Shown one piece after another: positions 8,400 through 33,623 of a stretch of DNA of 64,000 nucleotides. The position numbers and the translations under genes were made by a program. Below the pieces are notes generated by a model that saw nothing but the letters and a program-made list of their open reading frames with translations, did not search any database and was not told where the DNA came from. The stretch is from an uncultured Alphaproteobacteria bacterium (GTDB taxonomy: Bacteria; Pseudomonadota; Alphaproteobacteria; JAAXGF01): assembly GCA_964645285.1 (NCBI GenBank), contig CAZYDR010000001.1, positions 4,182 through 68,181 of the forward strand, read 5' to 3'. The stretch's first letter is position 1. Every line of letters starts with the position of its first letter.

Positions 8400-8403
8400 T
8401 GTT

Positions 8404-9555
8404 TCACGCTGCCTCTCCGTTTAGCATTTTGCGGGCGATCCACTGGTACCAGCGCAGGATGGGTTCCTCCATCCAGCTCATGTAGCCCGGCGCCGCCTTG
8501 GCCGAGCGAACGCCCATGGCAATATATGGCATGCTCTCGCCGTCTTCGTCGAGGGCGCGGCTTGAATCATAGGCTTCACCGTCCGGTGCATAGCGGCGCA
8601 GTTCGCCTTCCGGCCGTACCGACCCGGCCCGGTAGCGCACCTGATCGACCCCAACCGGCCACAGGGCATAGAAACCGGCGCCGCCGGGATAGATCACAAA
8701 GGCATTGGCCGGATGGATCATGACGATGTCGAGGCTGGACACATCCTGTCCGATATCGCCGGGCTTCCAATTGACCTCTTCGATGAGATCGCGGCTGACC
8801 TGACGGTCCATGTAATAGGGCACCTGATAGCGCGTCCAGCCGTCACTATAGGTAATGTTGGTGGTGTTATGGGTCGGCGAATATGTCTCCAACGTATTCT
8901 CGTGGAGGCCCATGTGGTGATAGCCCTCCATGTTGTTCTCGTTGAAGTTCTTCCAGTTGCCCGGCCATACTTTGTCGTAGTGGTTGGTCATGGTCCAGTC
9001 GTCGGCGCATTTGTAGGGCGCGAACGCCTGATCCAGAGCTTCCACCGTCGGCGCCAACGGCGCGGCATGGTCGTCCAGGTTGACCCAGATGAGATCGTTC
9101 CAGATTTCGAGGCGAAACTTGGGCAGGCAAATCTTGTTCTTGTCGAACTCCTGGTGCCGCTCCATGTGAAGCGGCTGCACGAGCTTGCCGTCCAACTCGT
9201 AGGTCCAGTGGTGATAAGGGCAGCGGAAGCGGTTGGCATTGCCGCTCTCGCCAGGCTTGACCACCAGCATGTAGCGGTAGCGGCATACGGTGGAGAGCGC
9301 CCGGATTGCCATGTCCGGGCCGCGCACGATGACCAGGGGCTCGCCGACCAGTTCCACCGTAAAGAAATCACCGGGACTACGGATTTCGGATACGTGGCCG
9401 ACGTCGATCCATTGCTTTTTCCAGATGGTCTCGACCTCGAGATCGAAAAACGCCTGGGAGGTGTAATGGGCAGGCTCCATGGTACGCATGCGATCGACCG
9501 GCAGGTCGAGATAGGACTTAAGCGACCCCAGAAGGGTCGTGAGGCCGGGTTCCAT
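8404..9555 (-). CDS. Rieske (2Fe-2S) ring-hydroxylating oxygenase alpha subunit, atypical first cluster motif
   Basis: Rieske motif 2 is CPYHHWTY. The mononuclear Fe motif ENNMEGYHHMGLH is present. Motif 1 reads CRYRYM instead of the canonical CxHRGM. Confidence 0.8.
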   Translation of the reverse strand: MEPGLTTLLGSLKSYLDLPVDRMRTMEPAHYTSQAFFDLEVETIWKKQWIDVGHVSEIRSPGDFFTVELVGEPLVIVRGPDMAIRALSTVCRYRYMLVVKPGESGNANRFRCPYHHWTYELDGKLVQPLHMERHQEFDKNKICLPKFRLEIWNDLIWVNLDDHAAPLAPTVEALDQAFAPYKCADDWTMTNHYDKVWPGNWKNFNENNMEGYHHMGLHENTLETYSPTHNTTNITYSDGWTRYQVPYYMDRQVSRDLIEEVNWKPGDIGQDVSSLDIVMIHPANAFVIYPGGAGFYALWPVGVDQVRYRAGSVRPEGELRRYAPDGEAYDSSRALDEDGESMPYIAMGVRSAKAAPGYMSWMEEPILRWYQWIARKMLNGEAA

Positions 9556-9599
9556 AATATCCTCCGGATGGCATCGGTATATGTCAGAACTATAAGCCG

Positions 9600-9624
9600 A
9601 GACCGCATCGTCGAACCAGCTTTC
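9600..9624. repeat. 25-nt direct repeat copy A (24/25 identical to 14077..14101), a duplicated 3' end of the DUF1244 gene
   Basis: AGACCGC[A]TCGTCGAACCAGCTTTC. On the minus strand this encodes ESWFDDAV, in frame with and just upstream of the Rieske gene ATG. Confidence 0.7.
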
Positions 9625-9732
9625 ACGACGGCGGCAATGGTTGACCTTTCAATCGCCGCCGATGTTGCCGTACCATGAGGCGCGGTCGTCGTCTTCGCGC
9701 CGCATAATCCTGATGCAACGGTAGGAACCACT

Positions 9733-10656
9733 ATGAAACTGGGAATCAGTCTGCCCGGAACCGACCTTGGCCCCGACCCTTTGGCGCTGCGGGACTTCAC
9801 CCAGCTCTCCGAGGAACTCGGTTACGACCATTTGGCGGTCTACGAGAACACCCTGAACATCAACCCGGTGAGCCTGCCCGACTGGGACGGCGTCGAGGAG
9901 CCCGGCAGTTCCTACCACGACCCCTTTGTCCTGCTCGGTTATCTAGCGGGGCAGACCACATACATCGAGCTCTCGGTGCAGGTGCTCGTGCTGGCCCAGC
10001 GTCAGACTGCCCTGGTCGCCAAACAGGCGGCCTCGCTGGATTTTCTGAGCGGCGGGCGGCTTCGCCTTGGCGTCGGGATTGGATGGGACGAGAAACAATT
10101 TATCGCCCTTGATGCGGATTTCTCCAGCCGGGGCGCGCGCTCGGCGGAACAGATCGATGTCATGAAGGCGTTGTGGCGCGACCAGTACGTGGATTTCGAC
10201 GGCAAATGGCACCGCATTCCCGATGCCGGGATCAACCCTCGGCCGACCGGCAATTCCCTGGAGGTCTGGTTCGGCGGCAAGCACGACAACGTGCTGCAAC
10301 GCATTGCCCGGATCGGTGACGGCTGGATGCCGCTGCACCTTGCCGCCGCCGATGACGCCCCGCGTGAGATCGCCCGGCGCGAGATCGAGACCCTGATGGG
10401 CTACGCCGAGACCAACGGGCGCGGCCGTGACGAGATCGGTATCGACGGCTGGGTTTCCATGGGCGCCGGGACCGCCGACGACTGGCGCCGGGAAATCCTC
10501 GGCTGGCGCGAGCTGGGCGCCAGCCATATCACCCTCAACACCGCTTTCGATGTGGGTCACCACAGCCGTATTGCGGGGCGGAACTTCGACGATCACGCCG
10601 CCGCCATACGGGAATACATGGCCGTGGTGAAGGATCTGTTCGAAACCTCCAACTGA
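9733..10656 (+). CDS. LLM-class (luciferase-like) F420/flavin-dependent oxidoreductase
   Basis: MKLGISLPG...LRLGVGIGWDEKQF...WFGG is the characteristic TIM-barrel LLM family. Confidence 0.75.
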   Translation: MKLGISLPGTDLGPDPLALRDFTQLSEELGYDHLAVYENTLNINPVSLPDWDGVEEPGSSYHDPFVLLGYLAGQTTYIELSVQVLVLAQRQTALVAKQAASLDFLSGGRLRLGVGIGWDEKQFIALDADFSSRGARSAEQIDVMKALWRDQYVDFDGKWHRIPDAGINPRPTGNSLEVWFGGKHDNVLQRIARIGDGWMPLHLAAADDAPREIARREIETLMGYAETNGRGRDEIGIDGWVSMGAGTADDWRREILGWRELGASHITLNTAFDVGHHSRIAGRNFDDHAAAIREYMAVVKDLFETSN

Positions 10657-10675
10657 GCGATAGAAGGTAGAAAAG

Positions 10676-12676
10676 ATGTCCGTAACCCACTTGGAAATCC
10701 TCGACCGTCAGCCGTATGAGAACGGGCGATCCTTCGGCGAGGTCGGGCCCTTTGAGCGTATCGACGCCATCGCCCATTATGCGGTCGATCCGGGACATGC
10801 GGCGAACCAGGGCATCGTCGATCTCGCCCTGGCGGAACGGAACGACGAGGGCCGAGTCCGGTTCAGCGGTGATATGACCTTGCTGATGCCGCGGCAAGCT
10901 GATCGGGGCAACCGGGCGCTGATCATGCATGTGCCCAACCGCGGTGGGCGGCAGCTGTCGCGGTTGAATCTCTACCCGCGGGAAAGCCCGGTTTCCGCGG
11001 CCGTGGAGCCGGGCGACGGCTTCCTCTTTGAGCACGGCTGGACTGTCGGCTGGGCGGCATGGCAGTGGGACGTTCCACGATCCCCCGAACGGGTGCGGAT
11101 CGGCCTGGCGGCCCCCGAAGTACCCCTGGCGGCGCGTCAACCGGACGGCCGTATGCAGCTCAGACTGCAGATCTTCCGCTCGAGTTCCAGTCTGCCCCTG
11201 ACCGATCAGCACGTCGGCCCCCACGGCGATCACCGCCTGATCCGAAGCGCCGATGTGAACGACGCCGAGGCCACGCTTTTGGTGCGCCGTGGACCCTATG
11301 GCGAAGCGCGCACCATTGCGCGCGACCGCTGGCGCTTCGCCCGGGCGGTTGACGGCCAGGCGGTCGAGGACGACGGGCACATCTGGCTGGACGGCGGGTT
11401 TGAAGCCGGCCTGACCTACGATGTGTTGTACACGCCGCTGAACTGCCCCGTGGTCGGCGCCGGACTGCTGGCGACCCGAGACCTAGCGTCGTATCTGCGC
11501 TACGATGAGGGCGCGCCCACGGCCGGCGCGATCAACCATGCCATCGCCGAGGGCCAGTCCCAGTGCGGCCGCTTCCTGCGGACATTTCTCCATCTCGGCC
11601 TCAACAACGACGAAGCGGATCGGCCCGTATTCGACGGCGTGCTCGCCCATATCGCCGGCGGCCGGCGCGGCGAGTTCAACAACCGCCATGGTCAACCCTC
11701 GGTACAGCCGACACCGCTATTTGGCCATCTGTTCCCCTTCGCCGACGATCCGCAAACCGACCCCTTGACCGGCCAGACCGGTGGTCTGCTGGACCGCCTG
11801 CGGCAAAACGGCGGGGTGCCCAAGATTTTCTACACCGACACGTCGTCGGAATACTGGCGGGGCGATGCCTCGCTCAGCCACACCGATCTTGCGTCGGGCG
11901 GTGACTGTGCGTTGCCCGGCGAGGTCCGGCGTTACCTGTTCTCCTCGACCCAGCATAGCGCCGGCGAGGTGCCGCTAACCAATCAGACGGTATTCGGCGG
12001 CATTGGGACGGTCCCGGTGAACATTGTCGATTACCGCCCGCTCTATCGCGCCGCCCTGGCCAATCTGCTCGCCTGGATCGCCGATGGCTATGAGCCGCCG
12101 GCGAGCGCTTACCCCCAGGCATCGACGGGCACTCGCGGAACCCGGCGTGACGTCATGGCAACCCTGTCCGCCATTCCCGGTCTCGCCCTGCCCGACGCCG
12201 ACGTGCTGACAACCATGTATCCCCTCGACCTTGGGGCGTTTGCCGACAGCGGCATCGCCACACCGCCGGCGAAGGTCGGTCCAACGGCCTATCCGGACTG
12301 GGTCTCGTCGGTCGATGCAAATGGCAACGAAGCAGCCGGCATTGCCATGCCCGACATCACCGTGCCGGTGGCCACCCACACCGGCTTCAACCCGCGCCAT
12401 CCGGACATCGGCGGGCCCGGCGAGATGCTCGAATACATCGGCTCGACAGTGCCCTTCGCGCTGACCGAGGAGGCCCGCGCCGCGGCCAACGACCCGCGAC
12501 CCTCCCTGGCCGAACGTTACGCCGGCCGCGACGACTATCTCGCCCAGGTCCGACAGGCGGCACAGGCCCTGGTCGGCCAGCGCTACCTGCTGGCCCAGGA
12601 CATCGATGTCTGCCTTGAAATTGCCGCCGAGCGTTATGACGCCTGCCTGGCCGAGCCGTCAGCGGATCGGGCATAA
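10676..12676 (+). CDS. conserved hypothetical protein, putative alpha/beta-hydrolase-domain protein of unknown function
   Basis: The blocks HYAVDPGHAANQGIVDL, LIMHVPNRGG and DGFLFEHGWTVGWAAWQWDV recall the family annotated as 'alpha/beta hydrolase domain-containing protein'. No catalytic assignment is possible from sequence alone. Confidence 0.5.
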   Translation: MSVTHLEILDRQPYENGRSFGEVGPFERIDAIAHYAVDPGHAANQGIVDLALAERNDEGRVRFSGDMTLLMPRQADRGNRALIMHVPNRGGRQLSRLNLYPRESPVSAAVEPGDGFLFEHGWTVGWAAWQWDVPRSPERVRIGLAAPEVPLAARQPDGRMQLRLQIFRSSSSLPLTDQHVGPHGDHRLIRSADVNDAEATLLVRRGPYGEARTIARDRWRFARAVDGQAVEDDGHIWLDGGFEAGLTYDVLYTPLNCPVVGAGLLATRDLASYLRYDEGAPTAGAINHAIAEGQSQCGRFLRTFLHLGLNNDEADRPVFDGVLAHIAGGRRGEFNNRHGQPSVQPTPLFGHLFPFADDPQTDPLTGQTGGLLDRLRQNGGVPKIFYTDTSSEYWRGDASLSHTDLASGGDCALPGEVRRYLFSSTQHSAGEVPLTNQTVFGGIGTVPVNIVDYRPLYRAALANLLAWIADGYEPPASAYPQASTGTRGTRRDVMATLSAIPGLALPDADVLTTMYPLDLGAFADSGIATPPAKVGPTAYPDWVSSVDANGNEAAGIAMPDITVPVATHTGFNPRHPDIGGPGEMLEYIGSTVPFALTEEARAAANDPRPSLAERYAGRDDYLAQVRQAAQALVGQRYLLAQDIDVCLEIAAERYDACLAEPSADRA

Positions 12677-12744
12677 GTCATACCGTAGATCAGCGTGCCG
12701 GCATCGACTTACTCACCGGGCAATCCGCTGTCCAACCACGCCGA

Positions 12745-14058
12745 TTAGCCCGTACCGGGCTTCTCCAGCCGCGCCATCACCTGCTTCGCACTTGCTATGA
12801 GGGGCGCGAACCAGGAGCGGCCGCTATAGAACGGCATGGTCTTGAACGGCAGTTCGTCGAACGCGGTCTCGCTGCCCGGCTCTCCCATCAGCCTGAGGGC
12901 AACCTTGTTGCCAAGATGGGTCCCGGTGGGCAGGCCGCCGCCGTTCATGCCGAGGACGTAATAGACGCCGTCGTGGCGGCCGATATGGGGCAGCGTATCG
13001 AAGGTCAGCCCCAACTGCCCGTGCCAGTAATGGCTCAAACCGACATCGGCGAGTTGCGGGTGGATCTCGCACATCTCGCCATGCAGCGCCGTGGCAATAC
13101 GGCGGTCGCGGTAGAGCGGGCGGATCGTCTGACCGAGAAACAGGATCCGCGGCTCGTCCGGGGCGATGCACCACGAATGGAAGTTGTTGCGTACATCGAG
13201 GTTGACGCGGCCGCTCGGGAAGAGCTCCGCCAGGGTCTCTTGGGGCAGCGGCTCGGTGGCCACCATATGGGCGTTGACCGGGATGATGCGGCGCCTGAGG
13301 AAGGGCGTTTCCTTGCCGATGTAGCCGTTGGTCGCGACCACCACGTCGCCCGCCTCGATCGTCCCCCGGCTGGTCGCCACGTCGAAGGTTTGTGCCCGTT
13401 GCTCGATACCGAGGACGCGGGTATGGTCAAGGATCGTCGCGCCCGCCGCCTCGACCCGGTCGATCAGGCCATCGACCAGCAGCGCCGGATGACAGGCGCC
13501 GGTGCCGGGAAACGCGACGCCGCCATAATAGAAATCCGACCCGGTCTCGCGCCGCTTGTCCTCGGGGCCGATGACATAGCCCTCGACGCCGGCGTGCTCC
13601 CGCATGAACTCCAGATCGCGGGTCTTGTACTCAAGCTGCTCGCGGTTGTAGGCCCAATAGACCCGGCCGCACTGGCGGTACTGGCAATGGATTTGCTCGC
13701 GTTCGATCAGCTCGGTGACATATTTGAAGGCGGCGTGGGTCTCGCGATATATGCCGGCCGCCCGCTCCATGCCGTGGCGCTTGGCCAGATCGACGAACGA
13801 GGCCATGGGCGCCACACCGACATAGCCGTGGTTTCGCGAGCTGGCGCCGAAGCCGGGCGCCTCGGCGTCAAGAACAACCACCTCGCGCCCATGGCGGGCC
13901 AGGGTCAAGGCCGCCGACAGTCCGGTGAACCCGGAGCCGACCACCACCACATCGGCCTTGGCCGGCAGCATGGCGTCGGCGCTCTCGGGCCGCCGCGGCG
14001 CTGCTTCCCACCAATAGGGTTCCTCCTTGAATCCGGAGGCGAATACCGATCCGGTCAT
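12745..14058 (-). CDS. FAD-dependent oxidoreductase (DAO / glycine-D-amino-acid oxidase family)
   Basis: Rossmann dinucleotide motif DVVVVGSGFTGLSAALTLA near the N-terminus. The start is reassigned to MTGSVF, which has a GGAG RBS; the longer ORF start at 14193 is an Arg-rich overextension. Confidence 0.75.
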   Translation of the reverse strand: MTGSVFASGFKEEPYWWEAAPRRPESADAMLPAKADVVVVGSGFTGLSAALTLARHGREVVVLDAEAPGFGASSRNHGYVGVAPMASFVDLAKRHGMERAAGIYRETHAAFKYVTELIEREQIHCQYRQCGRVYWAYNREQLEYKTRDLEFMREHAGVEGYVIGPEDKRRETGSDFYYGGVAFPGTGACHPALLVDGLIDRVEAAGATILDHTRVLGIEQRAQTFDVATSRGTIEAGDVVVATNGYIGKETPFLRRRIIPVNAHMVATEPLPQETLAELFPSGRVNLDVRNNFHSWCIAPDEPRILFLGQTIRPLYRDRRIATALHGEMCEIHPQLADVGLSHYWHGQLGLTFDTLPHIGRHDGVYYVLGMNGGGLPTGTHLGNKVALRLMGEPGSETAFDELPFKTMPFYSGRSWFAPLIASAKQVMARLEKPGTG

Positions 14059-14074
14059 GGTGCTGCTCCTATCC

Positions 14075-14407
14075 CTAGACCGCGTCGTCGAACCAGCTTT
14101 CGCCGGCCTCCCCGTGTTCGGCGATGGAGTCTTTGTAGCGTTGCTGAGTTTCCGGCGCCGCATCGGTCTGGTGGTTGGCCTTCCACTCGGCATAGGTCAT
14201 GCCGTAGATCAGCGTGCGGGCATCGTCGTAGCTGATCTCGTCGCCATGCTCGGCGGCCGCCGCGCGATACCACTTGGACAGGCAGTTGCGGCAGAATCCG
14301 GCGTTGTTCATGACGTCGATATTCTGCACGTCGGTGCGCTGGCGGAAGTGATGGACCATGCGGCGGAACACAGCGGCCTCGACTTCAGTGCGGGTCTGAT
14401 TGTCCAT
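14075..14407 (-). CDS. DUF1244 family protein
   Basis: The blocks FRRMVHHFRQRTDVQNIDVMNNAGFCRNCLSKWY match the DUF1244 family. Its last 8 codons are duplicated at 9600..9624. Confidence 0.7.
   Translation of the reverse strand: MDNQTRTEVEAAVFRRMVHHFRQRTDVQNIDVMNNAGFCRNCLSKWYRAAAAEHGDEISYDDARTLIYGMTYAEWKANHQTDAAPETQQRYKDSIAEHGEAGESWFDDAV
14077..14101. repeat. 25-nt direct repeat copy B (inside the 3' end of the DUF1244 gene)
   Basis: AGACCGC[G]TCGTCGAACCAGCTTTC; partner of 9600..9624. Confidence 0.7.
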
Positions 14408-14471
14408 TTATTATCTCCCTCTGGATTGGTTCACTCGACACGGCGCATGTATCGATCCCGGTTTATTGTTA

Positions 14472-14515
14472 GCGCCGACAATTCATGGAATCGATTTCGT
14501 GGTCAAGGTCGAACC
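14472..14515. repeat. solo copy of a ~44-bp IS30-like element terminus
   Basis: GCGCCGACAATTCATGGAATCGATTTCGTGGTCAAGGTCGAACC matches 20526..20569 at 41/44 in the same orientation. The partner copy abuts an IS30 transposase remnant. Confidence 0.6.
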
Positions 14516-14531
14516 CGGAACCCAAGGGGTA

Positions 14532-14864
14532 TCACGCCGATGGCACCAACAGATAAGGCGCGGCCCCGTCGCACTGTGACACGGAAACCCTGCTATTGAT
14601 CTCAAGCGGAGCCCGGGACGCGCCCATAAGCTGGACCTCGGCGGCGCCATGGAGTTGGACCATGGCGATATAGAACGGAACCTCGCCCGTCGGGCTATAG
14701 ACCGGGGATCGGTCCACGCGGGTGACAGCCGTCACGGAACCGCTCGCAGGGAGTGAAACGGGTTCGCATTGTTCGGCGCCACAGCCCGCGCAGGCATAAC
14801 GGCCGCGCAGCCGGTGGGTGCCGCAACTCTGGCAGCGATCGACAAGAAGGCTGTGGTCCGACAT
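14532..14864 (-). CDS. DUF35 Zn-ribbon/OB-fold protein (thiolase-like aldolase partner)
   Basis: A CxxC...CxxC zinc ribbon (CQSCGTHRL...CAGCGAEQCE) followed by an OB-fold tail. It sits immediately downstream of an SCP2-thiolase-like gene, as is usual for DUF35. Confidence 0.75.
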   Translation of the reverse strand: MSDHSLLVDRCQSCGTHRLRGRYACAGCGAEQCEPVSLPASGSVTAVTRVDRSPVYSPTGEVPFYIAMVQLHGAAEVQLMGASRAPLEINSRVSVSQCDGAAPYLLVPSA

Positions 14865-14867
14865 TGG

Positions 14868-16004
14868 CTAGGCCTCCAGAACAATCGAGACATGGGACGA
14901 AAACACGCCGCCATCGGCGTGGAGGAACGCGGCAGGCCGGCGGGCGGCCCCAGTCGCATCGTCCTCACGAGCCGCCCGGACGATCTCGACCAGATGGGCC
15001 AGACCGCCGGCGACGCCGCTATGGCCGTAGGACAACAGGCCGCCATGGGTGTTCAGCGGCAGGTCGCCGTCGCCATCAAAGCGGCCCTCTTTGGCGTCGC
15101 TCGTCGCCTGCCCGGCGGCGCTGACGCCGCACGCCTCAAGCAGTATGGCCAGGGTCACCGTGAAGCTGTCGTAAATCGCGACGCGGCCCATATCCGCCAT
15201 ACGCCGGCCGGCGGTGTCCAGGGCGGTGCGTGAGGCCCGCACAGCACCCTCGGCAATATCCGCCGGGGCGGCGCTCATGTGCTGGTGGGTGTGTGACTGA
15301 CCGGTTCCGGTGACCCGCAGCGCCGGGCCACGGGCGGGAGGCGTGGCGGAGACCACAACCGCCGCGCCGCCATCAGAGACCGGACAGCAGTCGAGCAGTT
15401 TCAGGGGCGTGGCAATGGGCTTGCTCGCCATGACCTCGGCGACCGTGATCGGCTTCGAGAAATGGGCGCCGGGCGTCGCTGCCGCATGGCGGCGCATGAG
15501 CACCGCGAACTCGGCCAGATCGACCTCGGACAAGCCCGTCCGGTGAAGGTAGGCCGAGGCGACGAGGCCGTAATAAGCCGGAACGGAAGCACCGTTCGGC
15601 GCCTCGTGCAGGGGGTCACCGACCTCGGACAGGACCCGCGTGGTCGCCGCGCCGGTTTGCCCGCTGAGGCGATTCTCGCCGGCGACTACGAGGATGGTCT
15701 CCGCGGCGCCGGACGCAATCAGATGGCGGGCTAGGGCGACCATGGCCAGCCCCGAGGCGCCGCCAACCGAAATGCCGTAGGCGCAGCTGGGCTGCAACGC
15801 GAAGGCCTCGGCGAAGCGCGTGGCGGGCATGAGGTGCGGCGCCGTAGTCGCGTAGCCGACAAGCAGGCCGTCGATCTGCCGGCGCTGCAAACCGCTGTCG
15901 GCCAAAGCCGCGCTGGCGGCCCGGGCCTGAAGATCGAGGGCGGAGGCCGGGCCAAGCTTGCCGAATTCGGTCAGCCCGACGCCGCAAATATAGGCGTCCC
16001 TCAT
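14868..16004 (-). CDS. thiolase-like lipid-transfer protein (SCP-x/Ltp-type aldolase-thiolase)
   Basis: MRDAYICGVGLTEFGK... is a thiolase fold lacking the canonical biosynthetic thiolase motifs, like Ltp2-type proteins. Confidence 0.8.
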   Translation of the reverse strand: MRDAYICGVGLTEFGKLGPASALDLQARAASAALADSGLQRRQIDGLLVGYATTAPHLMPATRFAEAFALQPSCAYGISVGGASGLAMVALARHLIASGAAETILVVAGENRLSGQTGAATTRVLSEVGDPLHEAPNGASVPAYYGLVASAYLHRTGLSEVDLAEFAVLMRRHAAATPGAHFSKPITVAEVMASKPIATPLKLLDCCPVSDGGAAVVVSATPPARGPALRVTGTGQSHTHQHMSAAPADIAEGAVRASRTALDTAGRRMADMGRVAIYDSFTVTLAILLEACGVSAAGQATSDAKEGRFDGDGDLPLNTHGGLLSYGHSGVAGGLAHLVEIVRAAREDDATGAARRPAAFLHADGGVFSSHVSIVLEA

Positions 16005-16393
16005 GGCTGCGCCTTGTCACTGTCGGGCGTGAAGCTGCCGGCGATGGCCGCTTCGCCGTCCTCCCGTTCGACGGTCAAGCGCAGGGCGCCGGCGGCGTCA
16101 GGCTCGAGAACAACCCGAACCGCATCGCCCACGAAAATCGGCTTGAGAAACCGGACCTCGGCGCGGCCCGCGAGGAAGGCGGTCTCGCCGACAAAGCGGC
16201 GCAGCTCGGAAAGCGCCCGCGCCAGAGAGAGCGTTCCGTGGGCGATAGGCCGGCCCATGGCCGTGGTGGCGGCGAAGTCCGGGTCGAGATGGATCGGGTT
16301 CATGTCGCCGGTCAGGGCCGCGTAGGCCTCGGTGCGCGAGCGGTCAACTCGGACCCAGTCGGTGACATGGCGCGGCGCCATTATTTCGCCCAT
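16001..16393 (-). CDS. MaoC-family (R)-hydratase hotdog protein
   Basis: The MaoC dehydratase signature LTGDMNPIHLDPDFAATTAMGRPIAHG is present. Confidence 0.75.
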   Translation of the reverse strand: MGEIMAPRHVTDWVRVDRSRTEAYAALTGDMNPIHLDPDFAATTAMGRPIAHGTLSLARALSELRRFVGETAFLAGRAEVRFLKPIFVGDAVRVVLEPDAAGALRLTVEREDGEAAIAGSFTPDSDKAQP

Positions 16394-16767
16394 AGGAAAC
16401 TCATTTCGCCCTCGACAACCATCTCGCTATCCGATGTCAGGGTCAGGCCGAAGGTGACCCAGGGCCGGCCTTTCTTACGCTCCTTTGCGATGCACCGGGC
16501 ACGGGCCATGAAGCGGTCCCCCGGCGCCAGAAGCCGCCCCACGGTCAGGCTCTGGCCGGCATGGATATTCCCCGGCGGGCGCGGCGAAATGATGGAAATA
16601 TAGGCGCGCATCATCATGCCGATAGTCATTTCGACACGGCCATCAAAGTCGCCCATGTCCGGAAAGGCTTTACCTAGGTGATCGCGCGCGTCGTCGGTCA
16701 CGACCATCTCGCGTGTACCGATCTCGTGGCCGACCTGGAAATCGTCGAAAGTGAGAACTTTGCTCAT
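16381..16767 (-). CDS. hotdog-fold protein (MaoC N-terminal-like hydratase partner subunit)
   Basis: 128-aa hotdog-fold protein overlapping the MaoC gene start; this pairing is typical of heteromeric ChsH1/ChsH2-like enoyl-CoA hydratases. Confidence 0.65.
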   Translation of the reverse strand: MSKVLTFDDFQVGHEIGTREMVVTDDARDHLGKAFPDMGDFDGRVEMTIGMMMRAYISIISPRPPGNIHAGQSLTVGRLLAPGDRFMARARCIAKERKKGRPWVTFGLTLTSDSEMVVEGEMSFLWAK

Positions 16768-16834
16768 GGTACCGCCTGCCGCTCAACATCGGTGTCGAGC
16801 GCTAGAGTGTATCCCGATAATGTAGGAAAATGCT

Positions 16835-18478
16835 CTAGGCGTTGCCCTCGCCGTGAACCACCCTGCCGCCGACAATGGTGGTGTCCACCTGAACCTCCTT
16901 AAGAGCATCGATCGGAATCTCGAATGGGTTTCGGTCGAGTACGATGACGTCGGCCAGCTTGCCGGTCTCGATCGAGCCCTTGCTGTCTTCCTCGAACCCG
17001 GCGCGGGCCGAGAAGGTCGTATAGAGCCGGATGCCGTCCATCACGGTGAGCGCTTCCTCGGGGCAGATTAGGCGGCCGCTCCGGGTCTCGCGGGCGACAG
17101 TGCACCAGATGCTCCACCACGGGTTCAACGCCTCGGGCTCGGTGCCCATGGAATCCGAATTGCCCGGCGGCATGAAGCCTTCGTCCAGCAGAGTGCGATA
17201 GGGCGCCGCCTTGTCGCCCTGGTTGGCGGTCTCGAGCCAGCCGTCGCCATACCAGCCTAGCGAACTGTAGGGCGTCGGCACCGGGATGATTCCCAACTCC
17301 TTGAGTCGGGCCAGCCCTTCGGGCCAATAGTCGCCGGCGAAATGTTCGATGCGGTGGCGATGATCGGCGCGCGGCGCCGCGTCCAGGGTGGTGCTGACCG
17401 CCTCGATGGCCATGGCCTGAGCGTCACGGGAGATGGCGTGCATCATCATGCGGATGCCGGATTTGTGAGCGCCGGCAACCAGATCGTTCAACTCGTCCTG
17501 GCTGAGGCGCATCCATTCCTGGTGAACGCCGTCGGCATCGCGCCCGGCGCCGTCGATGAACATCTTGGCGCTGCCGAATTTGAGCCAGTCGTTGCCGAAG
17601 CCAGTCTGCATTCCGAGGTTGATCAAGCCTTCGAGATCAACCGTGCGATACATTCCCCAGACGCAGGGGCAAAGCTGCACCCGGAGCGGCAGTTCGCCGT
17701 CGCGGTAGAGGTCCTGATAAATTCGCGTGCTCTCGGGCCAGCTCAGGAACTCGTGGATGCCGGTGATGCCGAACGCGGAGGCCTCGCCTAGGGTCTCGCG
17801 AATGGCGCCCTTGAGGGTGTAGTAGGGCCACGGGTTATGTTTGCGAAAAATCCAGTCGATGGCCTCGTGAATGATGCCCGTGGGCTCGCCGCTCGCCGTA
17901 TCGCGAACGATGCGACCGCCGTTGGCGACCGCGTGGAGTTCGGCGTCGGTCGGCGAATCCCTGGTTATGCCGGCCATGGCGAGGGCCTTGCCGTTCAACA
18001 TCTGACAGTGGGCGCTGTAGCGAACCATAAGCGGATGATCCGGCGCCGCCGCGTCGAAATCCGCCCGGCTCGGCGAGTTGCCGTCGGCCTCCAGAGGGAA
18101 ACGGCCCTGGCCGATGATCCACCGACCTTTGGGCGTGCGCGCAGCCTCGTCCCTGACCCAGGCGAGAATGGCCTCGCGGGTGTCGCCACCGCCCGAGACG
18201 CCGACATATTCGACCGGCGGGATATGGCAGCTCCCGGCCAGCTTGGTGTGGGTCGCCGTGCAATCGAGATGGATGTGGGTATCGATGAACCCCGGCAACG
18301 CGACGCGGCCCTTGAGGTCGATCACCCGCGTCTGGTCACCGATCAAGGCGTCCATGTCGGACCCGGCGCCCAGCGCAACGATGCGCTCGCCGTTAAAGGC
18401 GGCCGCTTCGACAGTCGTGCCGGCGGCATCCATGGTGACAATTTGGCCGTTCGTCAGAACCATATCCGCAGTCATCAT
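16835..18478 (-). CDS. amidohydrolase-family metal-dependent hydrolase
   Basis: The N-terminal metal-binding HxH lies in LPGFIDTHIHLD; 547 aa, amidohydrolase_3-like architecture. Confidence 0.8.
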   Translation of the reverse strand: MMTADMVLTNGQIVTMDAAGTTVEAAAFNGERIVALGAGSDMDALIGDQTRVIDLKGRVALPGFIDTHIHLDCTATHTKLAGSCHIPPVEYVGVSGGGDTREAILAWVRDEAARTPKGRWIIGQGRFPLEADGNSPSRADFDAAAPDHPLMVRYSAHCQMLNGKALAMAGITRDSPTDAELHAVANGGRIVRDTASGEPTGIIHEAIDWIFRKHNPWPYYTLKGAIRETLGEASAFGITGIHEFLSWPESTRIYQDLYRDGELPLRVQLCPCVWGMYRTVDLEGLINLGMQTGFGNDWLKFGSAKMFIDGAGRDADGVHQEWMRLSQDELNDLVAGAHKSGIRMMMHAISRDAQAMAIEAVSTTLDAAPRADHRHRIEHFAGDYWPEGLARLKELGIIPVPTPYSSLGWYGDGWLETANQGDKAAPYRTLLDEGFMPPGNSDSMGTEPEALNPWWSIWCTVARETRSGRLICPEEALTVMDGIRLYTTFSARAGFEEDSKGSIETGKLADVIVLDRNPFEIPIDALKEVQVDTTIVGGRVVHGEGNA

Positions 18479-18981
18479 TCCCAGTCCTTTCTTGCCTTTG
18501 AACAGAGCAATGTCTTGGCGTCATAGGGCCGCCGATAACCTGGACAGCGCCCACGACCTTCCGCTCCGCGGCATAATCGGTGACAGCCATCAGATACGAC
18601 CGCTACCCAGGGTGTCGTTGACCTAAATTAAGTTCGAGGGTGGTGATGCGGCCTGATGGATGGCCCGCGCTCTAGTCGAGACCCAATACGGTCTCTTCAA
18701 TGAGAAAATCGACCACCGCCTCAAGCGCCTCGTGGCCGTCGGCGCCGCCGGTCTTGGCGGTTTAGTTCCTTGACCCCGAACCGACTTTGTCACAACGACC
18801 ACTCTGCGCTACCATACTCGACTTCGCCCGCATACCAGCCCGACAGTTGGCACGGCGGGGAGGCAAACCGTTATTTCACGTTCGAGCACGACGGCGAAAA
18901 GCGACCCAGTACTGGCTTTATTTTGCAAGCCCCTTCAGCAACAAGCGGCCTTGCCCGCGGAAACCGTGATGGAGTTGAATC

Positions 18982-20460
18982 GTGACGGCAAAGAAACCGA
19001 ACGTCATCCTGATATTCGTCGATAATCATCCCGCGAATATGCTGGGATGCGCCGGCAACGACGAGGTTCACACGCCACATCTCGACAGCCTTGCGGCGCA
19101 AGGCACCCGGTTCAGCGACGCCTATTGTCCGAACGCCATGTGTTCGCCGTGCCGGGCATCGGTTCTGACAGGACTGATGCCTTCGCAACACGGCATTCAC
19201 ACCTGGCTGGATGACGCCGTCATCGACACCTGGCCGGAGAAATGGAATGCCATCGCGGAATTCTATACCCTGCCTGAACGCCTCGTTGAGGAGGGATACG
19301 ACACCGCGCTTATCGGAAAGTATCACCTTGGCATTGCCGACGAACCGCAGAATGGATTCAGGGAGTGGGTGACCTTACAGATCGGTCATGTATTGTCATT
19401 CTACGACAACGCGATGATCGACAACGGCAAGCGGGTTACCCATCCGGGGCATTCGGTCGATTATTTTACACAGCGCGCCGTTGACTATATCGGGGATCGC
19501 GGCAACGCTCCGGACCAGCCCTTCTTCATGTTTCTGACGTATCCGGCGCCTTACGGGCACTGGCCTTCCATCCAGGGCGAGCCGAACAATCGCTTCGCCG
19601 AGCGCTATCGCAATACCCCGTTCAATTCCGTGCCGCGAGAGGGGGTCAGCGGGAGTCTGGTTAACTGGTTGCTGGTCAGGCACGACAAAGTGCCTGGAGA
19701 AAAAGACCATGGTTATGTCGAGGATATGATTCAGATTCCCAACGACATGCCAACATTGCGAAACTACTACTCGCAGATGAGCATGGTCGACGAAGGCGTT
19801 GGAAATGTCCTGGCCGCGCTCGACAACAGCGGCCTGAGCGAGGATACGCTGGTCATCTATACGTCCGATCATGGCATGTCGCTGGGCGAGCATGGGTTCT
19901 GGGGGCATGGCGAGGATACCTGGCCGTCCAACACGTTTCGTGAAGCCAACCATATTCCGCTGATCGTAAGACCGCCCGGTGGCCCGGGCGGCGACCGCGT
20001 GGAACAACGCTTGGTCGGCACCACGGACATATTCGCCACCATTCTGGATTATTCGGGCGCCGCCTCGCCCGGCAAGGATGAAACAGCGTCGAGAAGCCTT
20101 CGCCGATTGATCGAAGGGTCCGAGTCTGATTGGAACGACGCCGTGTTCATGGAACAGGAGGAAACCCGGTCCATTCGGACTCCCGAATGGCTGTTCATGC
20201 GACGGTTCGAGCCGACCTCGTACAATTTCGATCACGAGCTGTTCGATTTGACGCAGGACCCCGACGAACGAAACAATGTCGCCAATGACCCTTCATACCG
20301 GTCGGTCGTCGACGAGTTGTCAGCCCGAATAGAGGCTTACTTTGAAAAATATTCCGACCCCAAATGGAACTTGTGGAAGGGCGGTACCTTGAAGTCAAAC
20401 TCGGGCAGACCATTTCTCTGGAAAGAAGCGTGGGGAGAGAATTGGGAACCAGGATTCTAA
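18982..20460 (+). CDS. sulfatase-family protein (formylglycine-dependent)
   Basis: The CxPxR formylglycine motif CSPCRAS is followed by GLMPSQHG, and the N-terminus PNVILIFVDN is typical of the alkaline-phosphatase-like sulfatase fold. Confidence 0.85.
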   Translation: MTAKKPNVILIFVDNHPANMLGCAGNDEVHTPHLDSLAAQGTRFSDAYCPNAMCSPCRASVLTGLMPSQHGIHTWLDDAVIDTWPEKWNAIAEFYTLPERLVEEGYDTALIGKYHLGIADEPQNGFREWVTLQIGHVLSFYDNAMIDNGKRVTHPGHSVDYFTQRAVDYIGDRGNAPDQPFFMFLTYPAPYGHWPSIQGEPNNRFAERYRNTPFNSVPREGVSGSLVNWLLVRHDKVPGEKDHGYVEDMIQIPNDMPTLRNYYSQMSMVDEGVGNVLAALDNSGLSEDTLVIYTSDHGMSLGEHGFWGHGEDTWPSNTFREANHIPLIVRPPGGPGGDRVEQRLVGTTDIFATILDYSGAASPGKDETASRSLRRLIEGSESDWNDAVFMEQEETRSIRTPEWLFMRRFEPTSYNFDHELFDLTQDPDERNNVANDPSYRSVVDELSARIEAYFEKYSDPKWNLWKGGTLKSNSGRPFLWKEAWGENWEPGF

Positions 20461-20525
20461 ACGGAAACCGACGCGGATTAGGCTAGTCGTGGTTTCCAGT
20501 GAGCGTTGGAAAAGAATTTCAGGGG

Positions 20526-20569
20526 CGCCGACAATTCATGGAATTGATTCCGTGGTCAAGGTCGAATCT
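20526..20569. repeat. ~44-bp IS30-like terminus adjacent to the transposase remnant
   Basis: GCGCCGACAATTCATGGAATTGATTCCGTGGTCAAGGTCGAATC; partner of 14472..14515. Confidence 0.6.
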
Positions 20570-20604
20570 TGACATCGGAGCATGTCCGCTGTTGGGATGC
20601 CGCC

Positions 20605-20746
20605 TCAGGGTCGCAATGTAGCTGTTCTGCGGTCCCGACAACAAATCGCCTTCCCAGTGACCCGGCACCGCCCGATCCTCGACCGAAGCCGGGCGCTCGC
20701 TGATCGACACCATGTCCCTGATCTGACCACGGTCAATGCCTTTCCG
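20605..20746 (-). mobile_element. IS30-family transposase remnant (internal ~47 codons only)
   Basis: RRKGIDRGQIRDMVSISERPASVEDRAVPGHWEGDLLSGPQNSYIATL matches the conserved IS30 core up to the HWEGDL motif. Flanking sequence in the same frame loses similarity, so the gene is internally deleted and inactive. Confidence 0.6.
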
Positions 20747-20799
20747 CCGCGCCAGTTTGGAGCGACGGATCGTGCGCCTGGCGTCTGGCGACCCTTCGG

Positions 20800-21074
20800 A
20801 CGCCCCGCTGATCGACTTCAATTATCTTGACGCGCCAGAAGACTTGGATGACTTGCGCGCCTGTGTTCACCAAGCGCGCGATGTGGTGGCGCAGGAGGCC
20901 TTCGATCCCTATCGTAGGCCGGCCGAAGAGCCCTGGGCTTCCGCCCGCGCGGACGACGGAATTGACCAGCTCATCCGCAAAACCGCGGAGAGCGCCTATC
21001 ATCCCTGTGGGACCTGTAAGATGGGCCACGACCTGCGCATCCACGTGCCGCTGGTGATCGGCGCCGATCTCTGA
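20800..21074 (+). pseudogene. C-terminal fragment of a GMC-family oxidoreductase (choline-dehydrogenase-like), 5' part missing
   Basis: NYLDAPEDLDDLRACVHQARDVVAQEAFDPYRR...AESAYHPCGTCKMG matches the GMC oxidoreductase C-terminal substrate-binding domain, including the catalytic His region. Only about 90 codons remain, downstream of the IS30 remnant. Confidence 0.65.
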
Positions 21075-21108
21075 GACCATACCCGGCCAAACCTTGAGGA
21101 GCGGAACC

Positions 21109-21291
21109 ATGGCGCTGGAAATGCGCGAGCAATGCGAGAAGTGTGAGCGGGCTTTGGGCAACGGCGACGAGGCTCATATCTGCAGCTATGAATGCACCTT
21201 TTGCGGCGACTGCACGGGCGCCATGAACGCCGTCTGCCCCAACTGCGGCGGCGAGCTGTTGCGCCGGCCGCGCCGCGCAGCATCCGACTAG
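21109..21291 (+). CDS. DUF1272 family small Cys-rich protein
   Basis: CEKCERAL...ICSYECTFCGDCTGAMNAVCPNCGGELLRRP fits the DUF1272 zinc-ribbon-like pattern. There is a GAGGAG RBS 8 nt upstream of the ATG. Confidence 0.6.
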   Translation: MALEMREQCEKCERALGNGDEAHICSYECTFCGDCTGAMNAVCPNCGGELLRRPRRAASD

Positions 21292-21300
21292 GCACCGTCC

Positions 21301-21636
21301 GTGGAACCCCGGCTCGGCGCCCAGCTATGGGTCGAGGCTCATATCTGGCGCTGCTGGACCAACGACGTGCCGGCCATGCTGGTGCGCCGCGGCCACGACA
21401 TGGCGGGGATCGTACTGCTCAAGATCAATCGTATCGAGGACGGCTGTACGGTGCTGGCGCCGGCCACGGATCTCGACGGCAATCGAACCTGGTTTCATGC
21501 CAGCGGCGAGCCGTGGGTATCGGAGGCCGACGCGGATGGGTATATCGCCCGTCGCTTGGAGAGCGATCCGGACCTCTGGGTGGTCGAGATCGAGGATCGC
21601 GAAGGCCGACACTTCCTCGACGACCCGGTGGAATAG
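21301..21636 (+). CDS. DUF1491 family protein
   Basis: LWVEAHIWRCWTNDVPAMLVRRGHDMAGIVLLKINR resembles DUF1491; GTG start. Confidence 0.55.
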   Translation: MEPRLGAQLWVEAHIWRCWTNDVPAMLVRRGHDMAGIVLLKINRIEDGCTVLAPATDLDGNRTWFHASGEPWVSEADADGYIARRLESDPDLWVVEIEDREGRHFLDDPVE

Positions 21637-21656
21637 GCGCGCCTATTCCACGCGCG
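21631..21656. repeat. 26-nt perfect palindrome overlapping the DUF1491 stop codon
   Basis: GTGGAATAGGCGC|GCGCCTATTCCAC is fully self-complementary. No U-tract follows it. Confidence 0.6.
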
Positions 21657-22027
21657 CGCGGCGCCCCGGGTTACAGGACGACAGATACGGCGATCGAAAG
21701 AGCGATGATGGCGAAGGCGGTCAGGCTGCTGACCAGAAGGCCGTCGTAGAGTCGCAAAATTCGGTCGATAAGGCGGTGGTTCGTCGTCAACGTGGTCTTC
21801 TGCCCGGCCGATGCCGGGCCTGCATAGTCGGTCGCTTGGATGCCAGCGGGCCGAGGTTCGAAACCACCGCTTCAATCTACGCCCGCGGTATTAACAATTC
21901 CTGACGACGGGCGAAAAAAATGTGCCCTACAGGAAAATAATTTCGCGCCAAGAGGATTGGACCCGTGGCAACGCTTGGCCTAGCATGGCCGCCCGATTAT
22001 CACCGTCGTCGCGCGCAAGGAATCACC

Positions 22028-22807
22028 ATGCCTAAACTCGCCGCCAATCTCAGTATGATGTTCAACGAGGTCGACTTCCTCGACCGTTTTGCCGCCGTCG
22101 CCAAGGCCGGCTTCAAGGGCGTCGAATATCTCTTCCCCTACGAACACGACAAGGATCAGCTCGCCGAGCTGCTCGGCAAGCACGGCCTGACCCAGGCGCT
22201 GCATAATATGCCGGCGGGCGGTTGGGGCACCGGTGAGCGCGGCCTTGGCTGCCTCCCTGACCGGGTTACCGAGTTTCAGGACGGCGTCGGCCTAGCCATC
22301 GATTACGCCACCACATTGGGCTGCAAGCGGCTCAACTGCCTGGCCGGCGTGGCGCCGGACGGAGTTGATGACGACGCCCTGCGCGATACCTTCGTGCACA
22401 ACCTGCGCTTCGCCGCCGGCGAATGCGCCAAGGCCGGCATCACCGTGATGAGCGAGCCCATCAACACCCGAGATATTCCCGGCTTCTACCTGAACCGCAC
22501 GAACCAGGCGTTAGCTATCTTCGACGAGGTCGACGCGCCAAACCTCATGCTGCAATACGACATCTATCACATGCAGATCATGGAGGGCGATCTCGCCCCC
22601 ACCATCGAGGCCAATCTCGGCCGCATCGCCCACATGCAGCTCGCCGACACCCCAGGCCGCCACGAGCCGGGCAGCGGCGAAATCAACTTCGACTTCCTGC
22701 TCGGCCACATCGACACCATCGGCTACGACGGCTGGATCGGCTGCGAATACAAACCCGCCGGCAACACTGTCGAAGGCCTCGGCTGGACCACACCCTATCT
22801 CGCGTAG
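22028..22807 (+). CDS. hyi: hydroxypyruvate isomerase / xylose-isomerase-like TIM-barrel protein
   Basis: MPKLAANLSMMFNEVDFLDRF...GFKGVEY is near-canonical for Hyi. The start is trimmed to that Met. Confidence 0.8.
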   Translation: MPKLAANLSMMFNEVDFLDRFAAVAKAGFKGVEYLFPYEHDKDQLAELLGKHGLTQALHNMPAGGWGTGERGLGCLPDRVTEFQDGVGLAIDYATTLGCKRLNCLAGVAPDGVDDDALRDTFVHNLRFAAGECAKAGITVMSEPINTRDIPGFYLNRTNQALAIFDEVDAPNLMLQYDIYHMQIMEGDLAPTIEANLGRIAHMQLADTPGRHEPGSGEINFDFLLGHIDTIGYDGWIGCEYKPAGNTVEGLGWTTPYLA

Positions 22808-22844
22808 TACCGCGACACATGCAATCACGAAAGGAAACAGACAA

Positions 22845-23732: not shown

Positions 23733-23736
23733 GGCC

Positions 23737-24489: not shown

Positions 24490-24589
24490 GATATCTGTCC
24501 ACACAGGGCGTCACACCTCTTCCAAACCGAGGCCGATCGGCTAGACTGCCGCCAGCAACAGCTTGGACATTAACCGGAGGACAGAGACC

Positions 24590-25483: not shown

Positions 25484-25590
25484 GCCCTCCCGCCTGCCGT
25501 CCCCCGGGGCCGCGCCCATGAAGGCGTCGTGGCGCGGCCCCGGTTGTTGCCCTCTATCCGCCGCTCCGGCGGCTCGGAAAAACCATCGCC

Positions 25591-27654: not shown

Positions 27655-27908
27655 GAGAACTTGTCGCGGGCAGCCTCGGACGTGGTTACCGGGATGAACT
27701 CTAAGTCGACCAGGTCGCGCCAGTTGTCGGCCCAGGTCTCCAGCAGGGCCGGGTCGTCGCAGCTCATGGTCTGGTAGCAGCCACTCATGTCCGCCGTGAC
27801 CCAACTTTCGTGAAAGGTCAGACCGTCCGGCAACATGCGGCCGCGTTCTTCGACCCGGCGATAGACCGCCCCTGCGTCCTTGAAGCGCTCGATTACCATA
27901 TAGAGCAT
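27648..27908 (-). CDS. DUF3303-like small protein
   Basis: MLYMVIERFKD N-terminus is typical of DUF3303. The start is chosen at that Met to avoid overlapping the upstream gene. Confidence 0.5.
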   Translation of the reverse strand: MLYMVIERFKDAGAVYRRVEERGRMLPDGLTFHESWVTADMSGCYQTMSCDDPALLETWADNWRDLVDLEFIPVTTSEAARDKFSQ

Positions 27909-30007: not shown

Positions 30008-30012
30008 GGCCC

Positions 30013-33614: not shown

Positions 33615-33623
33615 GATGGGCGA

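Follow-up and report, generated by a model that had tools for sequence, protein, structure and literature searches.

A stretch of 64,000 nucleotides of alphaproteobacterial DNA (contig CAZYDR010000001.1; hereafter the window) encodes on its minus strand, at positions 14532-16767, four consecutive open reading frames (ORFs) of 128, 130, 378 and 110 amino acids. In 5' to 3' order they specify a hot-dog protein that lacks the Asp/His catalytic dyad, a MaoC-type (R)-hydratase, an SCP2-type thiolase-like protein and a stand-alone DUF35 protein with a Cys4 zinc ribbon. We propose, with moderate confidence, that together they would form a hydratase/retro-aldolase system, which would turn a 2-enoyl-CoA into a carbonyl compound and a short acyl-CoA such as acetyl-CoA, no NAD-dependent oxidation being needed on the way. 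The original prediction made for this DNA had already seen a hydratase-aldolase module here, and had likened it to steroid side-chain cleavage systems and placed it in DNA bounded by insertion sequences. Active-site residues, conserved gene linkage and the scarcity of dehydrogenases at related loci favour direct cleavage, and with it the first part of that idea; the steroid and insertion-sequence context did not hold up.

The reading frames overlap or abut as had been predicted, and the junctions can be read directly from the sequence. The stop codon of the hot-dog gene (16381-16767) overlaps the start of the MaoC gene (16001-16393) as TAATG if the ATG at 16381 is used, giving a MaoC subunit of 126 amino acids, and by 13 nucleotides if translation begins at the upstream ATG, giving 130. 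The stop of the MaoC gene and the start of the thiolase-like gene (14868-16004) overlap as ATGA, and the DUF35 gene (14532-14864) starts 3 nucleotides past the thiolase-like gene, with a GGAGG 11 nucleotides upstream of its start. These stop/start overlaps point to a translationally coupled operon; scans for consensus promoters and terminators gave background levels only. In composition, the hot-dog, MaoC and thiolase-like ORFs are like the other genes of the window (third-position GC of 0.74-0.82), and the DUF35 ORF fails our composition filter, which asks for a third-position GC of at least 0.72 and a second-position GC below 0.56. In public annotations the four proteins go by the names 'hypothetical', 'phaJ', 'thiolase' and 'Zn-ribbon protein'. 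Domain, fold and motif evidence bears out the four-part logic of non-catalytic hot-dog, catalytic MaoC, thiolase-like protein and DUF35 that had been suggested for them.

The thiolase-like protein has Thiolase_N and Thiolase_C_1 domains and, in its AlphaFold2 model (pLDDT 92.6), the SCP2-type thiolase fold. A Foldseek search with this model placed 4u4e on top (E 2.8e-36) and returned TMq values of 0.83-0.91 to 4u4e, archaeal thiolases, TbSLP, Sal and Ltp2, without separating aldolases from thiolases. Alignment to solved structures puts Gly82 at the position of the nucleophile (GGASG, against CASG in thiolases), and Tyr278-Asp-Ser280-Phe (YDSF) replaces the HDAF of BbsB and of the archaeal thiolases, the two DUF35-dependent thiolases that we aligned. 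SCP2 thiolases carry HDCF at this motif (PMC12329534). Having lost both the nucleophilic cysteine of C-x-S-G and the histidine of His-Asp-(Cys/Ala)-Phe, the protein is, judged by its active-site residues, not a thiolase. The presence or absence of the canonical cysteine pair had been put forward as a check, and the outcome is clear: both cysteines are absent and the aldolase-type tyrosine is kept.

This combination is that of the steroid aldolases Ltp2 and Sal, in which the nucleophile is replaced by glycine and the equivalent tyrosine of the motif (YDHF in Ltp2, YDCY in Sal) is the proven catalytic base, Tyr294 and Tyr302, respectively (PMC12329534). Two aldolase hallmarks, the glycine at the nucleophile position and the base Tyr278, are therefore present in the window's protein. 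The catalytic acid is Tyr344 in Ltp2 and Cys304 in Sal (PMC12329534), and neither is found here: Cys304 corresponds to Ser280, and Tyr344 to His328, which sits at the histidine position of the thiolase G-H-P motif and aligns with Gln352 in Sal. With the glycine and tyrosine of the aldolases kept and neither known acid present, Tyr/Ser/His is, as far as sequence can tell, a third active-site constellation. It is strictly maintained: Gly82, YDSF, His328, Asp205-Cys206-Cys207, Asn318, His320, His362 and Asp364 are invariant in 121/121 relatives, and the glycine pair and YDSF recur in 27/27 resolvable metagenomic copies. The Asp205-Cys206-Cys207 motif is common to Ltp2. Residue 329, which follows the invariant His328, is Cys in 75 of the 121 relatives (G-H-C-G) and Ser in the subclade of the window.

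How close this protein stands to the steroid aldolases depends on the level at which one looks. Among solved relatives it scores highest with 4u4e (163.6 bits), followed by an archaeal thiolase (140), Ltp2 (136), Sal (119) and BbsB (103), and its identity is 35.5% to 4u4e, 32.5% to Ltp2 and 29.6% to Sal. In a neighbour-joining tree it belongs to a clade of its own beside the cysteine-less group of Ltp2, Sal and 4u4e, apart from the two true thiolases, and hence falls in neither the Ltp2 nor the Sal clade, with the exact branching uncertain as the tree carries no bootstrap or other support values. The label 'Ltp-like' is thus apt at the level of the superfamily and fails below it, where the protein lies outside both clades and lacks both catalytic acids. 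The family is large (more than 4000 matches); scanning contigs with the thiolase-like protein recovered three loci, the search patterns being too specific.

The first gene product has no Pfam match. Its AlphaFold2 model is a single hot-dog fold (pLDDT 83.5), for which Foldseek finds the best matches among MaoC-like dehydratases, PhaJ and the HadAB/HadBC chains (E 1e-6 to 1e-4, TMq 0.6-0.73). The Asp/His hydratase-2 motif is missing and no conserved D/H motif appears in the family alignment, where the invariant features are a PRPPGN[IV]HA segment after the central helix, C92, K95 and a C-terminal WA; the central helix itself is long (residues 44-60 of the model). Given the fold and the missing motif, this protein looks like the non-catalytic, pocket-forming half of a heteromeric hydratase. 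HadA and HadC are non-catalytic partners of HadB in this way. ChsH2 pairs with ChsH1 in the same arrangement of non-catalytic and catalytic subunits (PMC11321319).

The catalytic half would be the MaoC subunit (MaoC_dehydratas, PF01575, E 1.8e-20), which carries the full hydratase-2 motif YAALTGDMNPIHLDPDFA with Asp30 and His35, both invariant across seven orthologues. A subunit bearing the dyad is thus encoded next to a hot-dog subunit lacking it, as in heteromeric MaoC hydratases, and translational coupling is only suggestive of their assembly into a heterodimer or heterotetramer. The best solved relative of the MaoC subunit is PhaJ (1iq6, E 1.8e-13), HadB models are matched too, and ChsH1 and ChsH2 are not among its solved-structure sequence matches. 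Compared profile against profile, the two hot-dog proteins show no significant similarity (probability 7.9%), so that their relatedness rests on predicted fold. The mycobacterial FAS-II (3R)-hydroxyacyl-ACP (acyl carrier protein) dehydratases HadAB and HadBC offer a close parallel, being likewise made of two small single hot-dogs, one non-catalytic (HadA/HadC) and one catalytic (HadB), with the partner gene preceding the catalytic one and with matches to both of our proteins, by sequence models for the MaoC subunit and by fold for its partner. Unlike the module, however, the Had enzymes are biosynthetic, act on ACP-bound substrates and lack neighbours of the thiolase-like or DUF35 kind.

The fourth protein scores 25.1 bits with OB_ChsH2_C, just below the Pfam cut-off of 27.1, and phmmer matches it to the DUF35 domain of ChsH2 at 3.7e-4. 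A profile built from ten orthologues matches every solved DUF35 protein, best of all ChsH2-DUF35 (3.9e-11), followed by archaeal DUF35 (1e-8) and Shy-DUF35 (8e-8), with PhlB and BbsA weaker. It combines a Cys4 zinc ribbon (C11, C14, C25 and C28, all four invariant) with an OB fold. Ltp2/Sal-type aldolases have a DUF35 partner, and the adjacent gene supplies one here; its binding to the thiolase-like dimer, as a clamp or partner, is predicted.

The linkage of these genes in other genomes is what ties the four parts together. The hot-dog partner belongs to a family with 416 representatives in 1.84e9 proteins, found by an exhaustive profile search that proved necessary after a word-indexed search had given nine matches, and a metagenome scan with this protein found 142 relatives, from which 80 loci were kept. 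The window's gene order is found in a 93%-identical deep-sea alphaproteobacterial metagenome-assembled genome (MAG; L003/L004), in Roseibium aggregatum (L001), in a marine Rhodobacteraceae contig and the plasmid pLA6_001 (L007, L093), in a 6.5-Mb genome (L008) and in L021; in Tistlia (L011) the two pairs of genes are encoded on different strands and converge. In the metagenomic loci the MaoC gene directly adjoins the partner gene wherever the contig permits, on its downstream side in nearly all, and a cysteine-less thiolase-like gene with DUF35 lies within 4 kb of the hot-dog pair in 31 of the 80. The DUF35 gene always directly follows the thiolase-like gene in related loci. Among 18 loci with ample room on the contig that have the thiolase-like/DUF35 pair, 14 show the order thiolase-like, DUF35, hot-dog, MaoC and four the order of the window. 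The genes thus stay together through changes in their arrangement. With the four-gene set present in distant genomes and in 31/80 metagenomic loci, the arrangement is far beyond chance.

Gene fusions add a more direct connection. Five of the best 150 relatives of the partner (P0156, P0181, P0192, P0209 and P0262, about 260 amino acids each and confirmed by Pfam) join an N-terminal DUF35 (zf-ChsH2 and OB_ChsH2_C) to a C-terminal dyad-less hot-dog partner, in a domain order that is the reverse of that of ChsH2 and Shy. As DUF35 is bound to a thiolase-fold partner in every solved complex, according to our reading of the solved entries and the cited papers, these fusions, which parallel those in ChsH2 and Shy, provide a Rosetta-stone link between hydratase and lyase.

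They also bear on a different scheme, in which the thiolase-like protein would be a non-catalytic scaffold or an acyl-/malonyl-CoA decarboxylase and the hot-dog pair the sole enzyme, acting as a PhaJ-like (R)-hydratase. The structural neighbour TbSLP is only a feeble malonyl-CoA decarboxylase (PMC12329534), the hot-dog pair occurs without the thiolase-like/DUF35 pair in 15 of 34 loci with room for it, and the MaoC subunit is closest to PhaJ. Grouping of the hot-dog proteins with PhaJ had indeed been named beforehand as a finding that would speak against the module, and it is true to the letter (1iq6 is the best match), but it is a weak argument since Shy, a proven steroid hydratase, itself groups with PaaZ/PhaJ (PMC11321319). 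Nor does the MaoC gene stand alone in a polyhydroxyalkanoate (PHA) setting: it is always paired with the dyad-less partner, there is no PHA synthase gene near the module, and the sole phasin gene is 46 kb away. The strict conservation of Y278, D279, S280, N318, H320, H328, H362 and D364 over 121 sequences argues for catalysis by the thiolase-like protein, and translational coupling and the fusions argue for a joint function. We consider a non-lyase role improbable.

The neighbouring genes bear on which kind of intermediate the lyase would take. Typed by BLAST against a small reference panel of our own, with which divergent dehydrogenases can be missed, a short-chain dehydrogenase/reductase (SDR) or HCDH-type dehydrogenase is found within 7 kb in 7/7 loci that pair the hot-dog couple with a true thiolase and in 2/31 loci of the cysteine-less type (1/10 if only loci with 5 kb or more of flank on each side are counted). 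This anticorrelation is what would be expected if the cysteine-less enzyme performed retro-aldol cleavage on the hydrated product itself and had no need of a 3-oxo intermediate. In the true-thiolase class (seven loci) the companions of the hot-dog couple are an acyl-CoA dehydrogenase, an SDR and a true thiolase, which indicates that the heteromeric hydratase is not tied to the cysteine-less lyase. In L013-L018, L050 and L055 the order is IclR, hot-dog, MaoC, acyl-CoA dehydrogenase, SDR and true thiolase, and the cluster has in addition a divergent family-III CoA transferase and an AMP-forming ligase.

In the mechanism that we envisage, the MaoC subunit (Asp30/His35), with the dyad-less hot-dog lining the acyl pocket, would hydrate the double bond to a (3R)-hydroxyacyl-CoA, in a pairing like that of HadA-HadB and ChsH2-ChsH1. 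The cysteine-less thiolase-like dimer, clamped by the zinc-ribbon/OB-fold DUF35 protein, would then split the bond between C-alpha and C-beta by retro-aldol cleavage, with Tyr278 of YDSF acting as the base on the beta-hydroxyl while His328 and the Asn318/His320 region may stabilise or protonate the acyl-CoA enolate. We infer the formation of the heteromers, the aldolase chemistry, the roles of these residues and the direction of the reaction from the folds, residues and linkage described above. The long helix of the hot-dog partner and the compactness of the lyase (378 amino acids, against 403 in the Ltp2 chain and 428 in the Sal chain) are weak arguments that the acyl group of the substrate is small or medium in size and not a steroid. 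The beta-branched or sterically hindered acyl-CoA that the original prediction had favoured as substrate is speculative.

Several observations weigh against this proposal. The acids of both known aldolases are replaced (Ltp2 Tyr344 by His328, Sal Cys304 by Ser280), and the C304S mutant of Sal is inactive (PMC12329534). The best match of the thiolase-like protein by sequence and by structure, 4u4e, is itself without an assigned function, and the tree that sets the clade apart is a neighbour-joining tree without support values. A crotonase-type hydratase is encoded directly upstream of the thiolase-like gene in most metagenomic loci of the cysteine-less type, and the lyase could therefore be supplied by an enzyme other than the MaoC pair. 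In L012 the window's gene order is broken by an SDR gene that separates the MaoC gene from the thiolase-like gene, and SDR genes follow the module in L001 and in L007/pLA6_001; this fits a 3-oxoacyl substrate. (In the same part of L012, 5022-10474, a second, divergent thiolase-like/DUF35 pair with its own SDR lies directly downstream.) Within the 64 kb, a BLAST search over all ORFs found no panel homologue of a CoA ligase, CoA transferase, acyl-CoA dehydrogenase, crotonase, SDR, aldehyde dehydrogenase or IclR regulator, which means that a pathway context is missing. It is because of the SDRs in L012, L001 and L007, the upstream crotonase, the inactive Sal mutant and the small typing panel that we hold the model at moderate confidence.

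The SDR genes would suit a variant of beta-oxidation, in which the MaoC pair hydrates, an SDR encoded elsewhere oxidises, and the thiolase-like/DUF35 pair cleaves the 3-oxoacyl-CoA without a covalent cysteine intermediate, be it by direct attack of CoA or water or by way of the invariant Cys206/Cys207. The invariance of Asp205-Cys206-Cys207 and of His328 could be understood in this way, and the DUF35-dependent BbsAB and archaeal enzymes are true thiolases. On the other hand, the nucleophilic cysteine has become glycine in all 121 relatives and the histidine of HDCF/HDAF has become tyrosine, dehydrogenases are scarce near the cysteine-less type and regular near true thiolases, and we know of no precedent for cysteine-independent thiolysis in this fold. 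The same Asp-Cys-Cys motif is moreover present in Ltp2, an aldolase (PMC12329534). On balance we judge the variant unlikely and retain retro-aldol cleavage of the hydrated product as the preferred reading.

The same enzymes could also work in the condensing direction, adding acetyl-CoA to an aldehyde or ketone and dehydrating the product to an enoyl-CoA, for chain extension or to scavenge carbonyls. Chemically, either reaction can be reversed; in the steroid case the equilibrium of hydration is unfavourable and is pulled by the aldolase (PMC8399759), so that direction depends on context, and in the window there is no panel homologue of a CoA ligase, CoA transferase or acyl-CoA dehydrogenase near the module to supply an enoyl-CoA. 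Elsewhere, however, the clusters look catabolic, and no reductase or downstream biosynthetic gene is conserved beside the module; we find this direction improbable as well. Immediately before the module, other genomes carry a gene for an ADP-forming acyl-CoA synthetase or a PaaK-like ligase, and around it are genes for acyl-CoA dehydrogenases, a family-III CoA transferase, IclR regulators and TRAP/TAXI transporters; as far as gene content goes, these surroundings indicate acyl-CoA catabolism. Also in favour of the cleavage model, an aldehyde dehydrogenase is encoded near the module in L001, L007, L012 and pLA6_001, although in 0/31 of the metagenomic cysteine-less loci by panel BLAST typing.

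In R. aggregatum (L001:9505-14078) the module is directly followed by genes for an SDR, an acyl-CoA dehydrogenase, an AMP-forming ligase and an APH-type kinase, a set that we take to resemble the levulinate/4-hydroxyvalerate (lva) genes, and an iron-type alcohol dehydrogenase encoded upstream comes near the 4-hydroxybutyrate dehydrogenase model (442.6 bits, for a cut-off of 500). A 4-hydroxy-acid/levulinate-type route was considered for Roseibium and strain La 6, as was a hydroxycinnamate-type route (FerA-like ADP-forming ligase, hydratase, aldolase, aldehyde dehydrogenase); neither could be supported.

Functionally, the closest known systems are ChsH1-ChsH2-Ltp2 of the actinobacterial igr operon and Shy-Sal of proteobacterial bile-acid C5 side-chain degradation. 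With the former the module shares a MaoC hydratase encoded as one catalytic and one dyad-less hot-dog subunit, a thiolase-fold protein with glycine at the nucleophile position and tyrosine in the xDxF motif, and a DUF35 partner whose best solved match is that of ChsH2 (6ok1, the complex of Ltp2 with ChsH2-DUF35). It differs in that DUF35 is a separate gene instead of being fused to the inert hot-dog (where relatives have fusions, DUF35 is N-terminal), in YDSF against YDHF, in His328 for the acid Tyr344 with 32.5% identity and another clade, and in a MaoC subunit from which ChsH1/ChsH2 are not detectable by sequence. With Sal (9myr) it shares the motifs GGAS, IYD-x-[FY]-T and NTHGG-x-LS-[YF]-G-x-SG-x-AGG, the glycine at the nucleophile position, the tyrosine base and the DUF35 partner; it departs from Sal in having Ser280 for the essential Cys304 (PMC12329534) and 29.6% identity. 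Shy is a homodimeric MaoC-DUF35 fusion without an inert partner (PMC11321319), unlike the separate genes and inert partner found here.

Since the clade and catalytic-acid comparisons both fail, the module is a member of neither system. A genuine steroid or bile-acid side-chain module, orthologous to ChsH1-ChsH2-Ltp2 or Shy-Sal, would explain the same four functional parts and the affinity of the DUF35 profile for ChsH2-DUF35. It would also have to accommodate an identity of only 30-33% to Ltp2/Sal in a separate clade, the failure of the MaoC subunit to match ChsH1/ChsH2, a compact lyase and a long central helix in its hot-dog partner. No KshA/KstD/Hsa-type or other steroid gene was found in the window or in any related locus. 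We regard orthology with the steroid systems as very improbable, and a steroid context such as the original prediction had suggested is not supported.

Other relatives illuminate single parts of the module. The 'putative thiolase' 4u4e of Sphaerobacter thermophilus, solved by structural genomics, has the same cysteine-less GG, IYDSFT and S-Y-x-H motifs, although it groups with Ltp2 and Sal, and not with the window's clade, in the tree without support values. BbsAB and the archaeal thiolases have, as here, a stand-alone DUF35 beside an SCP2-type thiolase-fold protein, and metagenomic loci repeatedly place bbs-like accessory genes (family-III CoA transferase, acyl-CoA dehydrogenase, crotonase) near the module; unlike our protein they keep the nucleophilic cysteine and HDAF and need a dehydrogenase step. 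DUF35 also stands alone in PhlB and IpfE. The sphingomonad ibuprofen pathway provides, in IpfDE, a non-steroid thiolase-like protein with a small partner that we liken to ours by description only. The proposed product is propionyl-CoA, split off from a hydroxylated CoA thioester (PMC9195938), and the system differs in having no hot-dog pair and in being flanked by IS6100.

No such insertion sequences flank the module. Across the window, about 70 ORFs yielded no domain of a transposase or integrase, and a megablast of positions 8000-24000 against plasmids matched only hyi/glxR, with no mobile-element DNA. The window is instead chromosomal, as its housekeeping genes show (petBC, hemF, the CCA-adding enzyme, L25, pth, ychF, prs, lgt and proC), and the idea of DNA bounded by insertion sequences has to be dropped. 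Upstream of the module lies an Amidohydro_3 hydrolase gene (16835-18478), and downstream, 124 nucleotides away on the same strand, a DUF1244 gene (14075-14407, minus strand; PF06844, E 1.1e-32) followed by a DAO-type flavoprotein gene. As listed, the ORF of the latter (12745-14193) overlaps the DUF1244 gene; its probable start is the internal Met at 14058. DUF1244 is found behind the module in just two cases, the window and its 93%-identical relative (L003), and in 0/80 metagenomic loci, so its membership in the unit is doubtful. The surrounding DNA is variable: the 93% MAG has FGase/GCS2 upstream in place of the amidohydrolase, and lacks the DAO gene.

Farther genes of the window include Abhydrolase_10, an LLM-class oxidoreductase, a Rieske oxygenase, a hydrolase of the proline-iminopeptidase family, GGT, a sulfatase and hyi/glxR. 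Neither these genes nor the closer neighbours named above are kept with the module in other loci, and for this reason the Amidohydro_3, DUF1244, DAO, sulfatase, Rieske and LLM genes were rejected as clues to the substrate. In this window the module is an orphan, and with no pathway context and no handle on the substrate the practical yield of this particular stretch is small.

A few features nearby deserve mention for their own sake. The segment 18500-21900 has a lower GC content (about 0.60) and is not common to the closest MAG; the sulfatase gene in it (18982-20460) fails the composition filter, and a 112-amino-acid C-terminal fragment of a GMC oxidoreductase (20736-21074) looks like the remnant of a gene. 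At 24563-27654 a gene for a beta-keto acid cleavage enzyme (BKACE) adjoins that of a 687-amino-acid Fe-S flavoenzyme of the old yellow enzyme (OYE)/FadH type, and a similar OYE is found at the edge of the MAG contig and beside the module in L008. A minus-strand operon at 27908-34634 encodes a MoxR AAA ATPase, a DUF58 protein, a BatA/DUF4159 protein and a 699-amino-acid protein (27908-30007) for which Pfam gave no match; it appears to be a Bat-like cluster of the aerotolerance type.

To our knowledge, thiolase-fold aldolases are known only from steroid side-chain degradation. The steroid enzymes are studied as Mycobacterium tuberculosis drug targets and as biocatalysts. Our literature search on non-steroid DUF35 aldolases returned only steroid papers and no paper on the YDSF clade. 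Next to the known constellations, Tyr/Tyr in Ltp2 and Tyr/Cys in Sal (PMC12329534), we tentatively suggest, as a possibility that we would not yet bet on, that YDSF proteins may be a third, widespread class of thiolase-fold retro-aldolases, of a Tyr/His type, working in a self-contained four-subunit machine with a stand-alone DUF35 and a HadAB-like heterodimer and cleaving non-steroid 2-enoyl-CoAs to acetyl-CoA and a carbonyl compound.

The case for a third active-site solution in a widespread family is inferential throughout, and plausible. If it is true, the different acid/base pair would give enzymologists a third solution to compare with the other two, the orphan structure 4u4e would receive a function, and many annotations as 'acetyl-CoA acetyltransferase' would be corrected. 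The module would then offer an oxidation-free bypass of beta-oxidation for cases in which the beta-carbon cannot be oxidised or an aldehyde or ketone product is wanted. Should the clade consist of aldolases, this chemistry would be general in bacteria, among marine and soil Proteobacteria, and not a speciality of steroid degradation.

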